Of a DNA stretch of 64,000 nucleotides, positions 55,678-64,000 are shown piece after piece; the stretch's first letter is position 1; each line of letters opens with the position of its first letter. A program made the position numbers and the translations under genes. The notes under the pieces were generated by a model. It searched no databases. It was not told the DNA's origin and worked only from the letters and a program-made list of their open reading frames with translations. Source of the DNA: an uncultured Holophagales bacterium (GTDB lineage: Bacteria > Acidobacteriota > Thermoanaerobaculia > Multivoradales > UBA5704). Where the stretch lies: the NCBI GenBank assembly GCA_963741305.1, contig CAVUHL010000003.1, positions 1,434,260-1,498,259 on the forward strand, read 5' to 3'.

Positions 55678-57759
55678 ATGAAGATTCGCACCCAGCTCGT
55701 CCTGGCCTTCCTGCTGCTCTCCGTATTACCCCTCACCGGGATCGTCCTCTACTCCTACGCCTCCTCCCAGCGGGCCGTGCGCAAGGTGGTGGAGGCCGAG
55801 GCCGAGGAGCTGACGCAGCAGATGAACGGCCGCATGTCCACGATCCGGGCGGAGCTGGGGCGCAGCGCCGAGCGGGTGGGCGAGATGCAGATGGCCTCGC
55901 TGCTGGATCGGCAGACGGAGGAGGAGCTGGAGAAGGATTTCCCCGAAGTGCTCCGGGCCATGGGCGAATCGGCTTCCCTGGTGGACTCCCTGGAATTCAC
56001 GCCGTCCGTGCCCGCCGCCCCGCCCGCGCCTTCAGCAAAAGCTCCTCCCGCTCCCGAGCTTCCCACTCCCCGCGTGTCCGGCGACCCGACAGCTCTTCCC
56101 GCTTCGCCTGCTCCGCCCGCCCCGCCGCCGATGGTCATCGACGTCCGGGAGATCCTGGCAGAAGTCGAGAGGGCCCATGGAGAGGTCGGAGCCATCCAGG
56201 ACGACCCGGAGATCCAGCGGGTGATCGAGCAGGCGAACCGGATCGCAGCCGAGGCGGTGGCTGGCGGCCGGGTCATCGTCCACTCGACGCCGGAAATGCC
56301 GGACACGTCTGAGAAAAGGGCGGAGCTGGAGAGGAAGGTTCGCCAGGCCGAGGCGCGCAACCGGGAGCTGGAGGCCCGGCTCGAGAAGCAGCGCAGGGAG
56401 ACCCGTCTCCTCATCGGCAAGGACATCGGGGCCCCGGTCAAGGAAGAGGGAGGGCGCGTGGTCGGCTGGGTCCGCGTCCAGGTCCGTCCCGAGGAGATCC
56501 TCAGCCGGGTGCTCGGAAGGACCCAACGCGAGCGAGGGGAGATCCCGTTCGCCGTCGACGCCGAGGGCAACGTCCACACCGCGAACGAGGAAGACCTGCA
56601 GAAGATCAAGGCCCTCCCGATCACCCGGAGCCTGGTCGATTCCTCCCGGCAGATCCTCGACGGCTGGGTCGTCGTGACCTCCAACAAGGACGAAGAGAGC
56701 GGGCTCACCCTCGGCGTGGCGCGGCCGATCCGGCAATCCCTCGAAGAGCTCAGGCGCACCGCGGCGCGCAACTTCGGCTACGGCCTGGCCCTGATCGCCT
56801 TCGCCCTGGTTGGCATCCTGCCGCTGTCGAACCGGATGACCCGGGACGTGGGCGTCCTGCAGCAGGGCGCGGAGCGGATCGCGCAAGGGGACCTGGCGAC
56901 GCGGGTCTCCGTGCGGTCGCGCAACGAGATCGGCGCCCTGGCCACGGCGTTCAACCGCATGGCCGGGGACCTGCGCACCAACCAGGAGAAGCTCGTCGAG
57001 CAGGAGACCGAGCAGCGCCTCCTGCGCAGCGAGTACGAGCGCAAGACCCGCGAGCTGGAAGAGGCCCGCACCTTCCAGCTCTCCCTCCTGCCCAAGACCC
57101 TGCCCGCCCATCCGCGCTTCGAGATCGCCGTCTCCATGCAGACCGCGACCGAGGTCGGAGGCGACTACTACGACTTCCACCTGTCCGAGGACGGCATCCT
57201 GACCACCGCGGTGGGGGATGCCACGGGGCACGGCGCCCGGGCCGGGACGATGGTGACGGTGGTGAAGAGCCTGTTCTCCGCCGACTCCGGAAGGTCCGCG
57301 CCGAGGGACTTCCTGGCCGAGGCCGCCGTGGCCGTGAAGCGCATGGAGCTGGAGCGGATGGCCATGAGCCTGACCCTCGCCCGCATGGATGGGAAGACCC
57401 TCACGCTAGCCGCCGCCGGCATGCCCCCCGCCCTGCTGTACCGCGCCGCATCCCAAGAGGTGGAAGAGATCGCCCTGGAGGGGATGCCGCTGGGCGGTCT
57501 CGCCTACGACTACCAGGAGCTGAGCCTGAAAGTGGCCTCTGGAGACACTCTGCTCCTGATGAGCGACGGTCTCCCCGAGCTGCAGGACGAGCAGGGCGAG
57601 CCCTTCGGCTATCCCCGGGTGCGCCAGGGCTTCCAGGAGCTGGGAAGCTGGACTCCGGAAGAGATCATCGCCGGTCTGGGTGACGCAGCGCGCACCTGGA
57701 CCGGCGGAAAACCCCCCAACGACGACGTGACGTTCGTAGTGCTGCGCTTTAGAGCGTAG
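55678..57759 (+). CDS. membrane sensor with HAMP domain and PP2C-type (SpoIIE/RsbU-like) serine phosphatase domain
   Basis: Two TM helices flanking periplasmic region, HAMP (LQQGAERIAQGDLATRVSVRSRNEIGALATAFNRMAGDL), coiled coil, PP2C motifs (GGDYYDF, GDATGHG, SDGLPE, NDDVT). Confidence 0.8.
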   Translation: MKIRTQLVLAFLLLSVLPLTGIVLYSYASSQRAVRKVVEAEAEELTQQMNGRMSTIRAELGRSAERVGEMQMASLLDRQTEEELEKDFPEVLRAMGESASLVDSLEFTPSVPAAPPAPSAKAPPAPELPTPRVSGDPTALPASPAPPAPPPMVIDVREILAEVERAHGEVGAIQDDPEIQRVIEQANRIAAEAVAGGRVIVHSTPEMPDTSEKRAELERKVRQAEARNRELEARLEKQRRETRLLIGKDIGAPVKEEGGRVVGWVRVQVRPEEILSRVLGRTQRERGEIPFAVDAEGNVHTANEEDLQKIKALPITRSLVDSSRQILDGWVVVTSNKDEESGLTLGVARPIRQSLEELRRTAARNFGYGLALIAFALVGILPLSNRMTRDVGVLQQGAERIAQGDLATRVSVRSRNEIGALATAFNRMAGDLRTNQEKLVEQETEQRLLRSEYERKTRELEEARTFQLSLLPKTLPAHPRFEIAVSMQTATEVGGDYYDFHLSEDGILTTAVGDATGHGARAGTMVTVVKSLFSADSGRSAPRDFLAEAAVAVKRMELERMAMSLTLARMDGKTLTLAAAGMPPALLYRAASQEVEEIALEGMPLGGLAYDYQELSLKVASGDTLLLMSDGLPELQDEQGEPFGYPRVRQGFQELGSWTPEEIIAGLGDAARTWTGGKPPNDDVTFVVLRFRA

Positions 57760-57769
57760 GCAGCGAGCG

Positions 57770-58045
57770 GGGCGGGCTCCGCCCCACTTGGGGGAGCATC
57801 CGCCCTAAATGGGGCGGCGTCCGCCCCGTATGGGGGAGCGATTGCCCCACATGGGGCGAGAGTCGCCCAAAAAAGGGCGAACGCTCCCCCAAGTGGGGGA
57901 GTTACTCCCCCAGCTAGGGCGATGACTGCCCCACATGGGGCGAGCGTTGCCCCATCTGGGGGGAGAGCTCCCCTTTTTGGGGCGGACGTTCCCCCATCTG
58001 GGGCGGACGCTGCCCCACAAAGGGCGAAGACCGCCCCAGATTCCC
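57770..58045. repeat. tandem array of about 13 copies of a 21-bp unit, each containing a GCCCC-N4-GGGGC mini-hairpin
   Basis: ccgccccacttgggggagcat ccgccctaaatggggcggcgt ccgccccgtatgggggagcgat tgccccacatggggcgagagt cgcccaaaaaagggcgaacgct ...; strict 21-bp phase. Confidence 0.85.
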
Positions 58046-58056
58046 GAGCTACTCCC

Positions 58057-58160
58057 CTGGGAGCGCCGGCGTCTCGCCGGCCCACGCTCCCCGCCCCCGA
58101 AGAAGGTCGGGCCTTCGGCCCAATGTTTTTTAGGAAGCCGGCGAGACGCCAGCGCTCCCA
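58057..58160. repeat. hairpin element, second member of the GGGCCTTCGGCCC-core family; includes probable intrinsic terminator for the PP2C gene
   Basis: 25-bp inverted repeat ctgggagcgccggcgtctcgccggc / gccggcgagacgccagcgctcccag flanking cgaagaaggtcgggccttcggcccaatgttttttagg. Confidence 0.75.
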
Positions 58161-58205
58161 GGGGGCTCGCGCGAGCAGAGGAGGAGGGCCGATGCGCGTG
58201 ATATC

Positions 58206-60191
58206 TTGAGAGAAACCTACGACGAGCCCGAATCCATGCCCTCCCACCCCTACGCGCCGAGTCGTTCCCAGAGCGCGCGCCTAGCGATCGACTTGGTCGC
58301 CCCCAAACGCTCGGCTCACGCTTCCATCCGAGGCTATCTGTACCAAGCTTGCGTAGGGGTGGAGCGCTGGCTGTCTCTGAAAGAGGGAGAGGTGCTGCTG
58401 TGTGAGGGCGATGAAGACTTGGACAGACTGCTCTTAGAGGAGGGTTTAGGCGTTATTGAGCAGGTAAAGGTGCGATCTCGGCCGGTCGAAGATCGAGTGC
58501 TGAGGGAGAGCTTGCAACGCTTCGCCGAGACCTTTGTGGCCCTGCGCCAGAGGGGGGAGGACCGCCAATTCGTCTTCATCTGCACAGCAGAGCGGGCCCG
58601 AGCGGGCCGTCGCTTCGACGGGATTGATCCAATGTCGTATTGGCTGGAGGGCGGGGAGAAGCGCTCGGAAGTGGAGCAGGAGACCGCCCGGGGAGCGGTG
58701 CGCCGGTGGCTTGCCCTAGAGACGGAATCGGCTACCAAGGACGGCGGTAACCTCCGGCACCTAGAGGGGGCCCTTGCTTGGCTGGACGGAGAGGTGGGGC
58801 GCTGGAGGGCGTTTCTTGACCGAGTTGAGTGGCGCTTCGGAGCGCCGGACATAGACGGAGTACGGGCCGTGATCGAGGAACGCCTGCAGCAGCGCTCCGA
58901 CGCCAACTCCCTACCCTTGGGTGAGGTCTTGGTGGACTGGCTGGTGAGCCGCGTCTTGAAGGCCTCGAGCCATCCCGGGCCAGTGGAGCGGGTGCTCACC
59001 CGGGAGGGGTTGAACGAACTCTTGGTCGAAGTGGCCGGGGAATTGACGGATTGGAGCCGTCGCCAGGGCTTTAACATCCGACAGGCTTTCAAGGAACTCG
59101 CCGGTCTGGGACCTCTCCTCACGCCAGGCGTTGCCTCGCTGCCTCTAGTGCATACAGACCACGGACAAAGTGGCCTTGTGCCCCCCGGCAAGCTACTGAC
59201 CGCCGCCTATGAGGTGGTTCCATTCGAGGAGGAAGCCCGCGCCGGGGAACTGGGTGAGTTAGAGGCTTGGTGCAACGAGAAGCGGTCTCGGATGGCTTGG
59301 TTATGGACGGGCGAACTAGGTGCTGGTAAAACGCGTTTGGCGATTGAGCTCTGTAGACGCCTAGCTGCCATTGGATGGGAGACAGGATTTCTCCGCTTGG
59401 ACGTGAGGACCGACGACTTGGAATCCCTGGTCCGGGGAGTCCTCCCTCGTTTAGTTGTCGTAGACAATGCTCAGACCCGCCTGGAGCTGTTGAAGGCGGT
59501 GCTCACGCGGGTCGGAGAGGCCCAGGGGCCGCCGAAGTTGCGGCTGCTTCTGCTCGCGCGACAGGCGGGCGCTTGGTGGGGGCTGCTCAAGCTAGCTAGT
59601 AGGGATGCAGAAGATTTGCTCTTGAGTTCCCCCATCGCCAGATCTCTGGGTCCCTTGGTGAAGAACGAAAGGGAGATCCTGGAAGCCTATCGACGAGCAC
59701 TCATCTCTTTTCACGAAATAACACACCAAGCAATGCCGGAGGATTTTTCTCCGCCCGTTTTTTCAGCCGAAGAGGCTCGATTGCCCCTTCTCCTTCACAT
59801 GCGGGCACTGGAGTCTAAAGACGTTGGCACCCTTCCGGGTGCTGACGGCTTGCTTTCCCGCCTTGTTAACCGTGAGAGGATGATCTGGGGAGCTGCCCTT
59901 CAAGATCTTAGGATTCTTTATGGCTCTATCCCTGCTTGTGCAGAGGGGATGATCGAGAAAACGATGGCATCTATTACGATGCTAGGTGGAGTGAGCAATC
60001 AAGTAGAGGCGGAGGCCGTTGCGGAGGCGGCGGGGTCGCATTCACCTGCTGAAAGGCGAGTTATCATAGAAGTGCTTCATCGTCTCTATTCTGGTCCAGA
60101 AGTTGGGGGGCAATTTGTGCAGGCGCTTCAACCGGACCGTCTCGGTGAGGAACTAGTCGCCCAGGTTCTGGGAGGACGCCATGACCGATAA
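58206..60191 (+). CDS. STAND-class P-loop NTPase with about 330-aa N-terminal domain of unknown function (possible PD-(D/E)xK-like nuclease effector)
   Basis: Walker A GELGAGKTRLAIELCRR, Walker B RLVVVDNAQ, helical C-terminus; N-domain motif ...VLLCEGDEDLD...VIEQVKV; GC about 58%, lower than backbone. Confidence 0.6.
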   Translation: MRETYDEPESMPSHPYAPSRSQSARLAIDLVAPKRSAHASIRGYLYQACVGVERWLSLKEGEVLLCEGDEDLDRLLLEEGLGVIEQVKVRSRPVEDRVLRESLQRFAETFVALRQRGEDRQFVFICTAERARAGRRFDGIDPMSYWLEGGEKRSEVEQETARGAVRRWLALETESATKDGGNLRHLEGALAWLDGEVGRWRAFLDRVEWRFGAPDIDGVRAVIEERLQQRSDANSLPLGEVLVDWLVSRVLKASSHPGPVERVLTREGLNELLVEVAGELTDWSRRQGFNIRQAFKELAGLGPLLTPGVASLPLVHTDHGQSGLVPPGKLLTAAYEVVPFEEEARAGELGELEAWCNEKRSRMAWLWTGELGAGKTRLAIELCRRLAAIGWETGFLRLDVRTDDLESLVRGVLPRLVVVDNAQTRLELLKAVLTRVGEAQGPPKLRLLLLARQAGAWWGLLKLASRDAEDLLLSSPIARSLGPLVKNEREILEAYRRALISFHEITHQAMPEDFSPPVFSAEEARLPLLLHMRALESKDVGTLPGADGLLSRLVNRERMIWGAALQDLRILYGSIPACAEGMIEKTMASITMLGGVSNQVEAEAVAEAAGSHSPAERRVIIEVLHRLYSGPEVGGQFVQALQPDRLGEELVAQVLGGRHDR

Positions 60192-63100
60192 AAGGCATGA
60201 GGGAGCCACACTCCCGAGTAAGCTCCTCCAGGTTGGAGGTCCGGCTGGCAGAAAACATCTCCTCACTTCTCTCACTCGTCTTGCCGCAAGGCGCCCTGAA
60301 GCGCGAGGTTGGTTGAAGAGCGCTCTATCGGAAAATTTAAAGGAACTAATGGAACCAGCCGTCTTAGTCGCATTCGAGACAGGCGATCCTATAGGCCAAG
60401 TTCTGGCGGAACTGATTGAGGAGCAAGGGGACGAGCAGATTGTTCGACAGCTGCAAGAACTCTGTGATCAGCCGCAATTTGAGAATTCCATACCTCTGCT
60501 CGAATTAGGCGTGATAGTAACAAAGAAGGTCCTAGAGAGTTACGGGTTAGATTTTTCCTCTGAACCTGCCGATAGGGTGCGGGCTTATGCTCATCTCTTG
60601 GAGAATCTTGCTACCCGCCTTGGAGCCCTGGGTCGACTGGAGGAAGCGCTAGAGCACGCTGAGCATGCCGTGGGTCTCTTTCGGGGTCTGCCCCCCGAGA
60701 CTCCTGATGTAGCAGCCGATTTGGGGAGAAGCTTAACCAACTTGGGCCTCCGTCTCAGTGCTTTAGGTCGTGTAGAGGATGCACTTTCAGCGAGCGAGGA
60801 GTCGATAAGTCTGGTTCGGCAGTCGTCTCGCCTTCAGTTCGCAAATCACGTCAATGTTCAGATCCTGGGTGATAACAACGTCGTCCTCATCGGCAGATCC
60901 CGCCTCGACCTTACGCTCTACCGCGGGCGGAGGGGGGCGGCTTTTTCCTCTCCTGGGGAGGCGGGCGAGGCAGCCGAGGTCCTCAGCCCCTATGCCATGG
61001 CGGTCCCTCTCGTAGGCCGGGAGCGGGAATGGTCCGATCTCTGGACTTGGCTGAACAGCGGCTTGTCTGTATCCATCCGTGTCGTCACCGCGCCTGGCGG
61101 TGGCGGCAAGACGCGCCTTGCACTGGAACTCTGCGAGGAGGCTGTCCGCCGGGGGTGGTACGCCGGCTTCGTGAAGACTACAGCGCCCTTGGACTCTGTT
61201 GCAGGAAAGTTGCCGCGCCCGACGCTCGCTGTGGTGGACTACGCCGCCGCCCGGCTCCCCTGGCTGCGGGAGTGGTTGGCCGACCTCGCCAGTTCGCCGC
61301 CCGTCGGCGGTCCGCTGCGCATCTTACTCCTCGAACGGAACGCTGATCCGGCGTTGGGTTGGTGGGCGGAGACGTTCCGGAGGGGGAGTTGTGGAGATGC
61401 AGCAGTCCGGCACCTGCTGGATCCTGCCGATGGTCCCTACCCACTCCCACCACTTCGCCAGGTGGAACAACGGCGGGCTATCCTAGAAGCAACGCTCCGG
61501 AGCATCGGGAGCGATTTACGGCTACCGACGCGCGAGGAGCACCCGGACTTCGACCGCCAGTTGGCGACGCTGAGTTGGGGTGGCGAGCCGCTCTTTCTTA
61601 TGATGGCTGCCCTTACCGGAGCGAAGTGCGGTCTGGGGCACGTCCTCTCCTTGAATCGGGCAGACCTAGCCTTCGAGGTCGCTCAGCGGCGCGAGTTGAA
61701 CCGGATTAGTCAGATCGGGATGAGCCGCCTAATCTCAGAGTCTTTGGTCTGCCACATGGCGGCCTACGTGACCCTCTGCCAAGGACTTACGCGCGAGCAA
61801 GCGGAGGTAGCAATTGTAGTTGAGGACGAGGCATTGCGGCACGATCGTCTCAGTGATCCGCTGGTGATCTACGGGGCTCTGTACAACGCCCTTCCTGGAG
61901 CCGGGAATGCCATCGCGCCCATTCTGCCTGATGTGGTCGGGGAGGCTGCAATCTTGATGGCGCTCGGCGAGATGGATTTGGCAAAGGCTAGCGAGGCGGT
62001 CGTCCGAGCAGCAAACCAGGCACCGGAAAGGGTAGCAGCGACTGTGATGCGGATGGTCCAGGACTTCGGTGATTACGATAGCCGGCCAATAGAATGGCTG
62101 AACCGACTGACCGAAGACGTTATCGATTTAGAGGGATTGAAGAGGCTCGTTGGTCAGTTGCCAGAGAAGACTATAGTATTACGCGAGTTCTCTGCTAAAG
62201 TGATGGCGGCGCTGCTCGAGCGACTCCGTGGGGAAGGCGAAAAGGAAGGCATAGCTCTAGCCAGCAATAATCTTTCTATATATCTGGCCTCCCTTGGCCG
62301 TAGAGAAGAGGCGTTGGAGGCAGTGCAAGAGGCGGTTTTCCTATACCGTGATTTAGAGCAGTTCCGTCCTGATGTGTTCGGCCCCGACCTTGCAACATCG
62401 CTCAACAACCTATCCAATAGTCTGAGCGAACTTGGCCATAGTGAAGAGGCTTTGGTGGCGGTGCAAGAGGCGGCTTCCCTATACCGGAATCTAGCGCAGT
62501 CGCGTCCTGATGCGTTCGGGCCAGACCTCGCAACATCTCTCAACAACCTGTCCAACCGTCTGAGCGATCTCGGACGTCGTGAAGAGGCTTTGGAGTCAGT
62601 GCAAGAGGCGGTTGCCCTATACCGGAATCTAGTGCAGTTCCGTCCTGATGCATTCGGTCCGGATCTCGCGACATCTCTCAGCAACTTGTCCAACCGCCTG
62701 AGCGATCTCGGTAGGCTGGAGGAGGCTTTTAACTCGGTACAGGAGGCTGTAGATCTGTACCGTGAGCTGTCGTTTTTGCGACCCGATGCTTACCGTCCAG
62801 ACTTTGCGACGTCTCTCAACAACCTATCCAACCGCCTAAGCGCCCTTGGCCATCGCGAAGAGGCATTGGCGGTCGTGCAGGAGGCGGTGGATGTGTACCG
62901 CGAGCTTTCGCAGGCTCGTCCCGACGCGTTCTATCCGAATCTTGCGCTATCACTCAACAACCTTTCCAATCATCTGAGCGCTCTTGGCCGTCAAGAAGAG
63001 GCTCTGGAGGCCGTGCAGGAGGCATTAGCTGTATATCGTGAGCTTTCTCAGTCTCGTCCCGACGCGTTCCGTCCGGACACGGCGAAGTCGCTCAACAACT

Positions 63101-63765
63101 TGTCGAATTATCTGCGCGCTCTTGGCCGTCCTGAAGAGGCTCTAAGGGCTGTCGAGGAGTCGGTGGCTGTATACCGTGAGCTTGCGCCATTGCGTCCGGA
63201 GGCATTTCGTCCGTACTTGGCAATTTCGCTCAACAACCTATCTGTTCATCTGAGCGCTCTTGGCCGACGTGAAGAGTCGCTGGAGACAGTAGAGGAGGCA
63301 GTGGATGTCTATCGCGAACTTTCGCGGTCCCGTCCTGATGCGTTCCGGACGGATCTTGCGACGTCGCTCAACAATCTTTCCAATCGGCTGAGCGATCTTA
63401 GCCGCCGTGAAGAGGCTCTGGCGGCAGTGCATGAGTCAGTGGCCATCCGGCGCGAGCTTTCGCAGTCCCGTCCTGATGCGTTCCGGCCGGACCTTGCCTC
63501 CTCTCTCCACAACGTTGCCCTCCGGCTGCAGGAACTTGGCAGGCTTGGTGAAGCGCTGGAGGCCTCGGAAGAGGCCGTCCGCATGCTCCTGCCTTTCTTC
63601 CAAGCGCTTCCGGCAGCTTTTCGGGGCTGGATGACATGGATGACCAGCTTGTATCAGAAGTTATCGGTGGAGAATGGCCGACAACCCGATCCCGAGCTGA
63701 TCCAAGCGATCGCCTCTTCATCGGAGCGAGTCGAGCCTTCTTCTGACCCAGGGAGCCCATCATGA
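60181..63765 (+). CDS. STAND-class P-loop NTPase with two N-terminal and about eleven C-terminal TPR (TPR_10/12-like) repeats
   Basis: ATG overlapping upstream stop by 11 nt; Walker A VVTAPGGGGKTRLALELCEE, Walker B TLAVVDYAA; eleven 42-aa repeats SLNNLSNRLSxLGRxEEALxxVQEAVxLYRELSQSRPDAFRPDLAT. Confidence 0.7.
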   Translation: MTDKRHEGATLPSKLLQVGGPAGRKHLLTSLTRLAARRPEARGWLKSALSENLKELMEPAVLVAFETGDPIGQVLAELIEEQGDEQIVRQLQELCDQPQFENSIPLLELGVIVTKKVLESYGLDFSSEPADRVRAYAHLLENLATRLGALGRLEEALEHAEHAVGLFRGLPPETPDVAADLGRSLTNLGLRLSALGRVEDALSASEESISLVRQSSRLQFANHVNVQILGDNNVVLIGRSRLDLTLYRGRRGAAFSSPGEAGEAAEVLSPYAMAVPLVGREREWSDLWTWLNSGLSVSIRVVTAPGGGGKTRLALELCEEAVRRGWYAGFVKTTAPLDSVAGKLPRPTLAVVDYAAARLPWLREWLADLASSPPVGGPLRILLLERNADPALGWWAETFRRGSCGDAAVRHLLDPADGPYPLPPLRQVEQRRAILEATLRSIGSDLRLPTREEHPDFDRQLATLSWGGEPLFLMMAALTGAKCGLGHVLSLNRADLAFEVAQRRELNRISQIGMSRLISESLVCHMAAYVTLCQGLTREQAEVAIVVEDEALRHDRLSDPLVIYGALYNALPGAGNAIAPILPDVVGEAAILMALGEMDLAKASEAVVRAANQAPERVAATVMRMVQDFGDYDSRPIEWLNRLTEDVIDLEGLKRLVGQLPEKTIVLREFSAKVMAALLERLRGEGEKEGIALASNNLSIYLASLGRREEALEAVQEAVFLYRDLEQFRPDVFGPDLATSLNNLSNSLSELGHSEEALVAVQEAASLYRNLAQSRPDAFGPDLATSLNNLSNRLSDLGRREEALESVQEAVALYRNLVQFRPDAFGPDLATSLSNLSNRLSDLGRLEEAFNSVQEAVDLYRELSFLRPDAYRPDFATSLNNLSNRLSALGHREEALAVVQEAVDVYRELSQARPDAFYPNLALSLNNLSNHLSALGRQEEALEAVQEALAVYRELSQSRPDAFRPDTAKSLNNLSNYLRALGRPEEALRAVEESVAVYRELAPLRPEAFRPYLAISLNNLSVHLSALGRREESLETVEEAVDVYRELSRSRPDAFRTDLATSLNNLSNRLSDLSRREEALAAVHESVAIRRELSQSRPDAFRPDLASSLHNVALRLQELGRLGEALEASEEAVRMLLPFFQALPAAFRGWMTWMTSLYQKLSVENGRQPDPELIQAIASSSERVEPSSDPGSPS

Positions 63766-64000
63766 TCGATCCTGCAATCGTCGCAACAGCCGTCGTATCC
63801 GTACTCTCCCCCTACTTCGTAGAAGCCGCCAAGGCCGGTGCGAAGAAGATCGGGGAGGCGACCTTCGAGGGAGCCGGCAAGCTGTACAAGACGCTCAAGG
63901 AGCGTTTCACCGAGCCCGCCGAGGAGAAGGCCCTGGCCAAGCTGGAGGCCGCGCCCGAGAAGCCGGACGCCCAAGCGGCCTTGCGGCTGTTTCTGGAGGA
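63762..64000 (+). CDS. hypothetical protein, 5' partial (runs off window end), translationally coupled to TPR-NTPase gene
   Basis: ATGA overlap with upstream stop; MIDPAIVATAVVSVLSPYFVEAAKAGAKKIGEATFEG... open to end of window. Confidence 0.4.
   Translation, partial: MIDPAIVATAVVSVLSPYFVEAAKAGAKKIGEATFEGAGKLYKTLKERFTEPAEEKALAKLEAAPEKPDAQAALRLFLE

Follow-up and report, generated by a model that had tools for sequence, protein, structure and literature searches.

Do two overlapping genes for STAND NTPases form a two-protein NLR, or are they the product of a rearrangement? The question is raised by the end of a 64,000-nucleotide (nt) stretch of contig CAVUHL010000003.1, from an uncultured Holophagales bacterium. 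We call the whole stretch the window and number all positions on it. The two overlapping genes are gene 1 and gene 2, and a third gene, gene 3, runs past the window's end. An earlier note, made from the letters of the DNA, described a candidate NLR-like or Avs-like defense or signaling system with effector and sensor divided between two paralogous proteins. We found that the site is a variable chromosomal hotspot of a Thermoanaerobaculia-like acidobacterium, and that it holds NLR-like conflict genes (STAND NTPase plus tetratricopeptide repeats, TPRs) of two kinds, here called A-type and B-type. The observations are best explained jointly by an intact pair, gene 3 for a Bell-like protein and gene 4 for a B-type NLR, beside a strain-specific chimera, genes 1 and 2, in which an A-type fragment lies within a B-type gene. 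We put the probability of this joint explanation at about 65%.

The open reading frame (ORF) of gene 1 (58206..60191, plus strand) overlaps that of gene 2 (60181..63765, plus strand, 1194 aa) by 11 nt. Gene 3 begins at 63762, in an ATGA overlap of 4 nt with gene 2, and extends past the window end. These coordinates agree with the earlier note, which had also given gene 1 661 residues from TTG 58206. However, the start most likely lies at ATG 58236, which makes the protein 651 aa long; gene calling placed the start there, and B-type NLR genes at two related loci, L006 and L010, have their start codons at the aligned position. The window, taken from the NCBI genome, and contig L001, which Logan assembled from a sequencing run, are identical over all 5946 shared bases (0 differences). 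L001 also completes the cluster, with a full gene 3 (131 aa) and, after a 7-nt gap, gene 4 (789 aa, NTPase plus TPRs). Domain, profile, and model matches bore out the NLR-like, Avs-like STAND nature of the proteins. The NTPases of genes 1 and 2 are related, as had been proposed: both carry Walker A motifs (Table 1), and they are paralogous, with 30% identity over 331 aa (E 6e-14).

Comparison with homologues explains how the first two genes belong together. About 80 homologues span about 96% of gene 1 at 37 to 59% identity, and about two-thirds of them are 1000 to 1130 aa long, with nuclease, NTPase, and TPR_10/12 repeats on one chain. Gene 1 itself ends without a TPR sensor. Residues 7 to 217 of gene 2 are collinear with residues 644 to 853 of the one-chain homologue P0002 (43% identity), with residues 630 to 837 of P0003 (42%), and with residues of about 600 to 850 in more than 40 further one-chain homologues. 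In all of these, the counterpart of gene 2 residues 7 to 217 directly follows the counterpart of the gene 1 end. Therefore, gene 1 and residues 1 to 217 of gene 2 represent one former ORF, of the A type.

The sequence on both sides of this former ORF is of the B type. On the left, 58175 to 58282 is 87% identical at the nucleotide level to the 5' ends of B-type NLR genes (L010 3498-3609 and L006 1544-1638). The homology covers the upstream region, the start codon, and the first 15 or so codons (MPS.P.APSRSQSA), ends at about 58282, and resumes at about 60848. From about residue 226 on, gene 2 shows 67% identity with gene 4; with the NLRs of L006 and L010, the figure is 69%. This B-type body, like gene 4, has Walker A and B motifs and TPR_10/12 repeats and is paralogous to the gene 1 NTPase, for which the model is STAND-like. 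Its NTPase core fits the B-type consensus, and 82 of 86 highly conserved B-type positions are kept (4 deviate). Both A/B junctions are in frame with their flanks. What is left of the B-type N-terminal motif in gene 2 lacks the first half, including a 98%-conserved glycine (F220 here).

The simplest reading of these alignments is that a B-type NLR gene took up, within its amyloid-like motif, an A-type fragment of about 2.6 kb, which replaced only about 14 to 24 nt and was itself split. Gene 1 uses the B-type start codon and encodes a predicted nuclease-NTPase without a sensor of its own. Gene 2, which has a new Shine-Dalgarno sequence and ATG, looks like an otherwise intact, still-competent B-type sensor, with a damaged signaling motif and an A-type leftover as its cap. 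The earlier note had taken the division of effector and sensor as the design of the system; the one-chain homologues, the insertion junctions, and the absence of the block from a close relative speak for another origin. Because the A-type piece landed inside a B-type gene, the apparent two-protein design is a rearrangement, not a new system. The repeats also differ from the first description of eleven near-identical 42-aa units and 13 in total. The unit is 138 nt (46 aa), copies are about 75% alike at the DNA level, and about 10 units lie at the C terminus and 2 at the N terminus (Pfam marks 12 TPR_10 stretches). The TPR array of gene 2 is presumed to be the ligand-sensing part.

The close relative is represented by locus L013. 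Its flanks are 91 to 95% identical to those here and its copies of gene 3 and gene 4 are 94% identical, and genes 1 and 2 are absent. The order in L013 is M28 peptidase, HAMP/SpoIIE, ParE toxin/antitoxin, hairpin array, PKD protein, Bell-like gene, NLR, DUF8196 gene, lipoprotein, and ABC2/M1. (The ParE pair, the PKD-domain protein, and the DUF8196 protein are the cargo at L013 6878-7401, 7965-9449, and 12478-13047.) In L006, the downstream flank is 90% identical to that here, and the genes present are Bell136, NLR761, and Bell131, in that order. Since the cargo differs between these relatives, the site is a cargo hotspot. It is bordered by a HAMP/SpoIIE phosphatase gene on one side and by the lipoprotein and ABC2/peptidase-M1 pair on the other. 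A transposase fragment lies at the same chromosomal site in L006 (1-230). No arrangement like that of genes 1 and 2 was found among the other A-type and B-type homologue contexts examined. Genes 1 and 2 are a strain-specific, one-off chimera.

We also weighed whether the split within the A-type sequence could be an error or a programmed event, so that genes 1 and 2 would make up a single giant double-NLR ORF. Two features speak for this: single-chain homologues run collinear with both ORFs, and the frame change stays within 60157-60188. However, the two assemblies agree at every shared base (5946 nt), the junction holds no long homopolymer, and a +1 shift is required, which no -1 slippery heptamer fits. 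The spacer at the split point is about 37 nt long versus about 15 nt in one-chain homologues. Because the junction is about 22 nt longer than in the homologues, it is not a 1-nt slip. We regard a sequencing error or frameshift as very improbable. The insertion and split proposed above place the break in a poorly conserved inter-domain linker, where GGAGGA (60171-60176) stands 4 nt ahead of the gene 2 ATG (60181) and the gene 1 stop codon lies at 60189-60191.

The N-terminal domain of gene 1 is, by profile comparison and structural model, a PD-(D/E)xK nuclease domain of the Cap4/DUF4297 type. The earlier note had pointed to a possible signature of this kind, and it is present and conserved. In an alignment of 64 sequences, E57, G58, D61, D63, E75, Q76, V77, and K78 are invariant or nearly so, and D59 within the signature is counted with them. 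The PADLOC LmuA model matches residues 24 to 259 of gene 1 (E 5.8e-8); among the N-domains of homologues, LmuA matches 15 of 15 (best E 2.7e-15) and DUF4297 matches 11 of 15. A single-sequence PDB search with gene 1 gave a marginal Hda match only. With a profile of the N-domain, which was needed, the best PDB matches were the solved DUF4297 proteins 8ziq and 8xav, with RSAHASIRGYLYQ, EGDEDLD, and EQVK aligned opposite RSA..IRGY.YQ, E.IEDVD, and Q.K of 8ziq/8xav. The AlphaFold (AF2) model of gene 1 (mean predicted local distance difference test score [pLDDT] 88.8; predicted template modeling score 0.90) puts the signature residues on strands 1 to 3 of an alpha-beta-beta-beta-alpha-beta core. 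SeAvs3 was the top Foldseek match of this model in the PDB (E 7e-8). Further matches were HerA-DUF4297, Cap4, plant NRC2/3, and EfAvs5, including 9c1m_G and 6wam_F.

The NTPase of gene 1 has a STAND/NLR-like fold by model comparison. Its score with Pfam nSTAND_NTPase5 (PF25199) is 19.4 bits and that of gene 4 is 20.2 bits, both under the gathering threshold of 34 bits. Most homologues carry a precomputed PF25199 match; thus, the assignment to the nSTAND5 clade is made by homology. Gene 1 keeps Walker A, the Walker B Asp, and R442. However, the family-invariant DYAET beside the Walker B Asp reads DNAQT (Y411N and E413Q), and H546R lies in the first helix of the winged-helix region (residues 545 to 551, 59868-59888), where His is 97% conserved in the family. 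These three substitutions replace residues that are 97 to 100% conserved among A-type proteins. In SeAvs7, the nucleotide pocket holds a conserved His545; equivalence with the family His is putative. Other N-terminal modules also occur on nSTAND5-type NTPases (P0080, P0083, P0081, P0082/P0085, and P0086), namely, nucleoside phosphorylase, helix-turn-helix (HTH), glycosyltransferase, and trypsin-like protease. Such variety is typical effector swapping.

The closest known counterparts of the A-type family are Avs3 and Avs7. In their published mechanism, binding of a phage protein by the sensor goes along with tetramerization of the NTPase and DNA cleavage by the Cap4 domain. Both have the order seen in gene 1 and its one-chain homologues: nuclease, STAND NTPase, and repeat sensor, which is a TPR array in the A-type family. 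They share the Cap4/DUF4297 nuclease with its conserved ED.D...EQ.K, and the structure closest to the gene 1 model is that of SeAvs3. The gene 1 family differs in its nSTAND5-type NTPase and in a sensor made of a regular TPR_10/12 array. The C-terminal repeat sensor on the same chain, present in about two-thirds of the homologues, is absent from gene 1. In this genome, the gene breaks off after its second TPR, is divided into two ORFs, and lies within another NLR gene. The PADLOC Avs models matched neither gene 1, gene 2, and gene 4 nor the one-chain homologue P0002. Published work on Avs7 shows that its sensor lobe helps to keep Cap4 switched off and that activation requires this lobe. Because gene 1 lacks a sensor and has altered NTPase residues, and because activation of Avs7 needs the sensor lobe, gene 1 is most simply a leftover. 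It is probably inert or only weakly regulated.

Could the A-type fragment of gene 2 instead re-associate with gene 1, so that the gene 2 sensor activates the gene 1 nuclease-NTPase in trans, as in a designed two-protein NLR? The position of the split in a poorly conserved inter-domain linker would suit such a design, and GGAGGA with an ATG that overlaps the gene 1 stop suggests translational coupling. The in-frame fusion junctions, the well-conserved NTPase/TPR body of gene 2, and the intact catalytic-type residues of the gene 1 nuclease point the same way. There is also a precedent: Kaur et al. (2021) predicted recurring two-gene nSTAND2 systems in which both genes are STAND NTPases. Those systems resemble this locus in having adjacent genes that each encode a STAND NTPase. 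They differ in belonging to another NTPase clade, and the pairing here is found in one genome and explained by insertion. The arrangement is absent from the 91 to 95% identical relative and from every other homologue context examined, and gene 1 has substitutions at family-invariant NTPase positions. Moreover, A-type and B-type genes are recurrently broken, at differing points, which looks like birth-and-death turnover. We consider a designed two-protein NLR unlikely.

The broken genes of relatives deserve a closer description. In L002, L004, and L005, the TPR array that the seemingly short A-type homologues lack is encoded downstream, in an ORF of its own. A conserved gene-2-like partner beside short A-type homologues was considered and rejected, as the neighbor is their own missing TPR array. 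A B-type-like NLR in L016 is likewise split. (The TPR or split ORFs are at L002 8947-9813, L004 10648-11574, L005 10141-11352, and L016 2122-4835.) Since the genes of these four loci are broken at differing points, breakage of NLR genes is common. Such two-ORF genes could stem from frequent decay, from fission that is tolerated, or from trouble in assembling repeats.

In contrast to genes 1 and 2, genes 3 and 4 form a unit that recurs. The earlier note had seen that the third gene is coupled to gene 2, and this stands; it had not seen that the gene encodes a conserved Bell-like partner tied by a motif to gene 4. The gene 3 protein has a hydrophobic N-terminal helix (Kyte-Doolittle value 1.71 over residues 5 to 23) and an aspartate at position 3 that is at least 90% conserved. 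Its body has five predicted helices (residues 4 to 99, pLDDT 71) in a model of the 95%-identical protein P0182. G/N/Q/S/T make up 69% of the C-terminal tail, QQTANITGDRNTNVQISGSGNRVGNG, which the monomer model shows as disordered. The composition and predicted disorder of the tail are consistent with amyloid formation. Gene 4 begins with SRSQSASVSGADNVNVQIQGDNNVVHLG, which holds a motif of about 25 residues common to the gene 3 tail, and nearly all B-type NLRs start in this way. For pairs, we used the criterion of Dyrka et al., a local alignment of at least 15 aa with a score of at least 40 (BLOSUM62, gaps 14/4). Genes 3 and 4 scored 57 over 28 aa, with 13 identities and a z-score of 8.5. Seven further pairs of a Bell-like tail with the NLR N terminus of the same locus scored 42 to 61. 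Across the pairs, the alignments cover 21 to 28 residues, with 39 to 50% identity and z-scores of 5.7 to 9.1 against shuffles. The gene 3 tail and the remnant in gene 2 (RLQFANHVNVQILGDNNVV) scored 38, which is under the threshold.

Of 10 independent loci, 9 have a Bell-like gene next to a B-type/nSTAND5 NLR gene, and the two genes often overlap by 4 nt. The Bell-like gene stands downstream of the NLR gene, upstream of it, or on both sides, and collinear genes with a tiny gap or overlap are also seen in L006, L008, L013, L014, and L016. A profile of the Bell-like family matched 4056 clusters (E <= 1e-3) in a 50%-identity library. Among the best 145 of these, 133 are at most 180 aa long, mostly 120 to 150 aa, with varied G/N/Q-rich tails, and 116 of these 133 small relatives have an acidic residue at positions 2 to 5. 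A profile search of genome contigs with a narrower alignment found four loci, all in metagenome-assembled genomes of Thermoanaerobaculia. Fusion forms occur as well: P0331 (1178 aa) is an NLR with a C-terminal Bell-like domain, and P0219 (617 aa) is a longer protein with an N-terminal Bell-like domain and the motif. In other B-type NLRs, a TIR domain (P0119) or an Mrr_cat nuclease (P0126) sits exactly at the motif hinge. The N-terminal effector and adaptor modules are interchangeable, which is the usual logic of NLRs.

By its motifs and gene order, the conserved unit of gene 3 and the B-type NLR gene 4 is identifiable as the known Bell/BASS amyloid-signaling layout. Pfam, NCBIfam, and PADLOC have no model that matches gene 3, and its link to the published Bell family is one of shared features, not of shared accessions. 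Dyrka et al. (2020) described Bell/BASS amyloid-signaling NLR gene pairs in a screen that required Pfam NB-ARC or NACHT, and Bab/Agp is an abortive-infection antiphage system shown in E. coli (Ibarlosa et al. 2024). Like them, the pair here includes a small, helical protein whose N-terminal helix is hydrophobic and which has an acidic residue at position 2 or 3; its C-terminal motif of about 25 aa is repeated at the N terminus of the adjacent NLR. Likewise, the collinear genes overlap or stand apart by a few nucleotides, and TIR or nuclease effectors can take the place of the motif. However, the host here belongs to Thermoanaerobaculia (Acidobacteriota) and not to Actinobacteria or Cyanobacteria, the NTPase is nSTAND5-like instead of Pfam NB-ARC/NACHT, and the order of NLR followed by Bell is common. 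Because the NTPase is neither NB-ARC nor NACHT, the original screen would have missed these pairs.

Fungal HET-S/NWD2 and E. coli Bab/Agp serve as models for the mechanism that we suggest. Binding of a ligand to the TPR array of gene 4 would drive nucleotide-dependent oligomerization of the NLR. The clustered N-terminal motifs may then adopt an amyloid fold and template the tail of the Bell-like protein. In this scenario, the freed hydrophobic N-terminal helix of the Bell-like protein would damage the membrane, which would lead to regulated cell death or abortive infection. The putative function of the pair is thus regulated cell death or antiphage defense. Alternatively, the pair might serve to recognize kin or non-self, or to bring about developmental cell death in a bacterium that aggregates. 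Bell/BASS pairs have been reported mainly from multicellular or aggregating prokaryotes and have been likened to fungal heterokaryon incompatibility, which would fit such a role. However, Bab/Agp, the one bacterial system put to an experimental test, acts against phage by abortive infection, and the L013 hotspot carries a ParE toxin-antitoxin pair, as defense islands often do. We find the recognition or developmental role rather improbable.

A role outside conflict altogether, as STAND-type signaling or transcription regulators of the AfsR/SARP or MalT kind, was weighed as well. The NCBIfam AfsR and FxSxx_TPR models do match gene 2. However, these matches are limited to TPR units and score far below the cut-offs (63 versus 1430 bits for AfsR, and 129 versus 300 bits for FxSxx_TPR), and membership in the SARP/AfsR family or FxSxx systems was rejected. 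No HTH, OmpR-type/BTAD, or other DNA-binding domain was found in any of the four proteins. The N-terminal modules of the family are nucleases, TIR, PNP, protease, and amyloid-like motifs. We give the regulator reading hardly any weight. Two findings that the earlier note had named as fatal to its reading, orthology to AfsR/SARP-like regulators with a DNA-binding domain and an N-domain devoid of catalytic motifs, were both not observed.

Other systems share single parts with this locus. The N-domain of gene 1 is homologous to that of DUF4297-HerA, Lamassu LmuA, and CBASS Cap4. Here, however, the nuclease is fused to a STAND NTPase and stands without a HerA, LmuB/SMC, or SAVED partner. No Lamassu LmuB/SMC-like gene is present in the locus or its continuation.

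Several observations weigh against the joint explanation offered here. Gene 2 is an intact ORF of 1194 codons with a strong Shine-Dalgarno sequence, an ATG, and two in-frame junctions, and the chimera could be used and not merely tolerated. To call gene 1 inert is a judgment, because it is off consensus at 17 of 160 strongly conserved positions and ranks 11th of 64, which is not extreme. One Bell-like gene (L015 5001-5381) has no adjacent NLR gene and overlaps a 148-aa ORF. Pfam finds no NB-ARC or NACHT in the B-type NTPase, and gives sub-threshold nSTAND5 and AAA_16 matches only. The PADLOC defense-system hidden Markov models for Avs and bNACHT match none of the proteins. In a variant reading, genes 1 and 2 would be a working sensor/helper pair born of the gene-in-gene insertion, which might also trigger a membrane effector through the residual half-motif and the Bell-like gene. 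We think it doubtful that the chimera works in this way.

The composition of the region is distinct. GC content is 59.4% in 58206-64000 versus 66.6% in the rest of the window; the earlier note had put these values at about 58% and 69%. GC at third codon positions is 0.65 in gene 1, 0.61 in gene 2, and 0.89 in the neighboring SpoIIE gene, a contrast that counts in favor of genes 1 and 2 being strain-specific. No other A-type, B-type, or Bell-like copies are found elsewhere in the window, and no Rfam family was detected in 57500-64000. Beyond gene 4, L001 continues with a minus-strand lipoprotein gene and then the ABC2-membrane/peptidase-M1 gene.

The hairpin array and hairpin element that the earlier note placed ahead of the genes are both there (Table 1). 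The array lies between the SpoIIE phosphatase gene and gene 1, matches no Rfam family, and is 74 to 76% identical to sequence at the matching place in the close relative (L013 7418-7793). It is upstream of the cluster but not specific to it. The inverted repeat, present as one copy in the window, surrounds a terminator-like hairpin (58109-58121) that is followed by a T run, and it may be a small mobile or repetitive extragenic palindromic (REP)-like element. Matches of about 30 nt to its arms adjoin other Bell/NLR loci (L012 6216-6249 and L007 7177-7207).

Table 1. Positions of the genes, junctions, motifs, and repeats described in the text (window numbering unless a contig is named)
Feature	Position	Strand	Support
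Gene 1, 651 aa: nuclease (residues ~24-300) and STAND NTPase with helical and winged-helix parts (~335-646)	58236..60191	+	
Predicted nuclease signature, E57-G-D59-E-D61-L-D63	58401-58424	+	Conservation, model, alignment to 8xav/8ziq
Predicted nuclease signature, E75-Q-V-K78	58458-58469	+	Conservation, model, alignment to 8xav/8ziq
Gene 1 Walker A, GELGAGKT	59310-59333	+	
Gene 1 Walker B region, LVVVDNAQT	59451-59477	+	
Leftover B-type NLR 5' end: upstream region, ATG 58236, first ~15 codons (MPSHPYAPSRSQSA); left junction	58175..58282	+	
Split point in the former A-type ORF, frame +1	60171..60207	+	Collinearity with P0002/P0003
Gene 2, 1194 aa: A-type tail (1-217), truncated amyloid-like motif, B-type STAND NTPase, ~ten 46-aa TPRs	60181..63765	+	
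A-type remnant: helical linker and first two TPRs	60181..60831	+	
Right junction and B-type N-terminal motif remnant, RLQFANH joined to VNVQILGDNNVVLIG	60829..60894	+	DNA alignment with gene 4, L006, L010
Gene 2 NTPase core: Walker A APGGGGKT (61090-61113), Walker B LAVVDYAA (61225-61248), ILLLER (61321-61338)	61090..61338	+	
TPR_10/TPR_12 array, ~ten units	62254..63603	+	Pfam, Tandem Repeats Finder (TRF), unit list
Gene 3, Bell-like, first 79 of 131 codons	63762..64000 (full gene on L001 5708-6103)	+	
Tandem array of ~12 small hairpins, 21-nt period, CCCCAnnnTGGGG	57769..58027	.	TRF, inverted repeats
37-nt inverted repeat, 86% complementary; arms 58045-58081 and 58137-58173	58045..58173	.	Inverted-repeat search

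For annotation, the locus is a warning that tandem STAND genes in such hotspots can be products of rearrangement and that many members of the family are split. If genes 1 and 2 were a working sensor/helper pair, one sensor would serve two death effectors, and the gain of an N-terminal module by an NLR would have been caught in the act. As a probable chimera, the locus gives a junction-resolved view of the modular evolution of bacterial NLRs, with one NLR gene inserted exactly at the N-terminal signaling hinge of another. The profile search suggests that there are thousands of related small Bell-like proteins. Genes 3 and 4 would extend Bell/BASS-type signaling to Thermoanaerobaculia and to an nSTAND5-like clade that screens based on NB-ARC and NACHT would miss.

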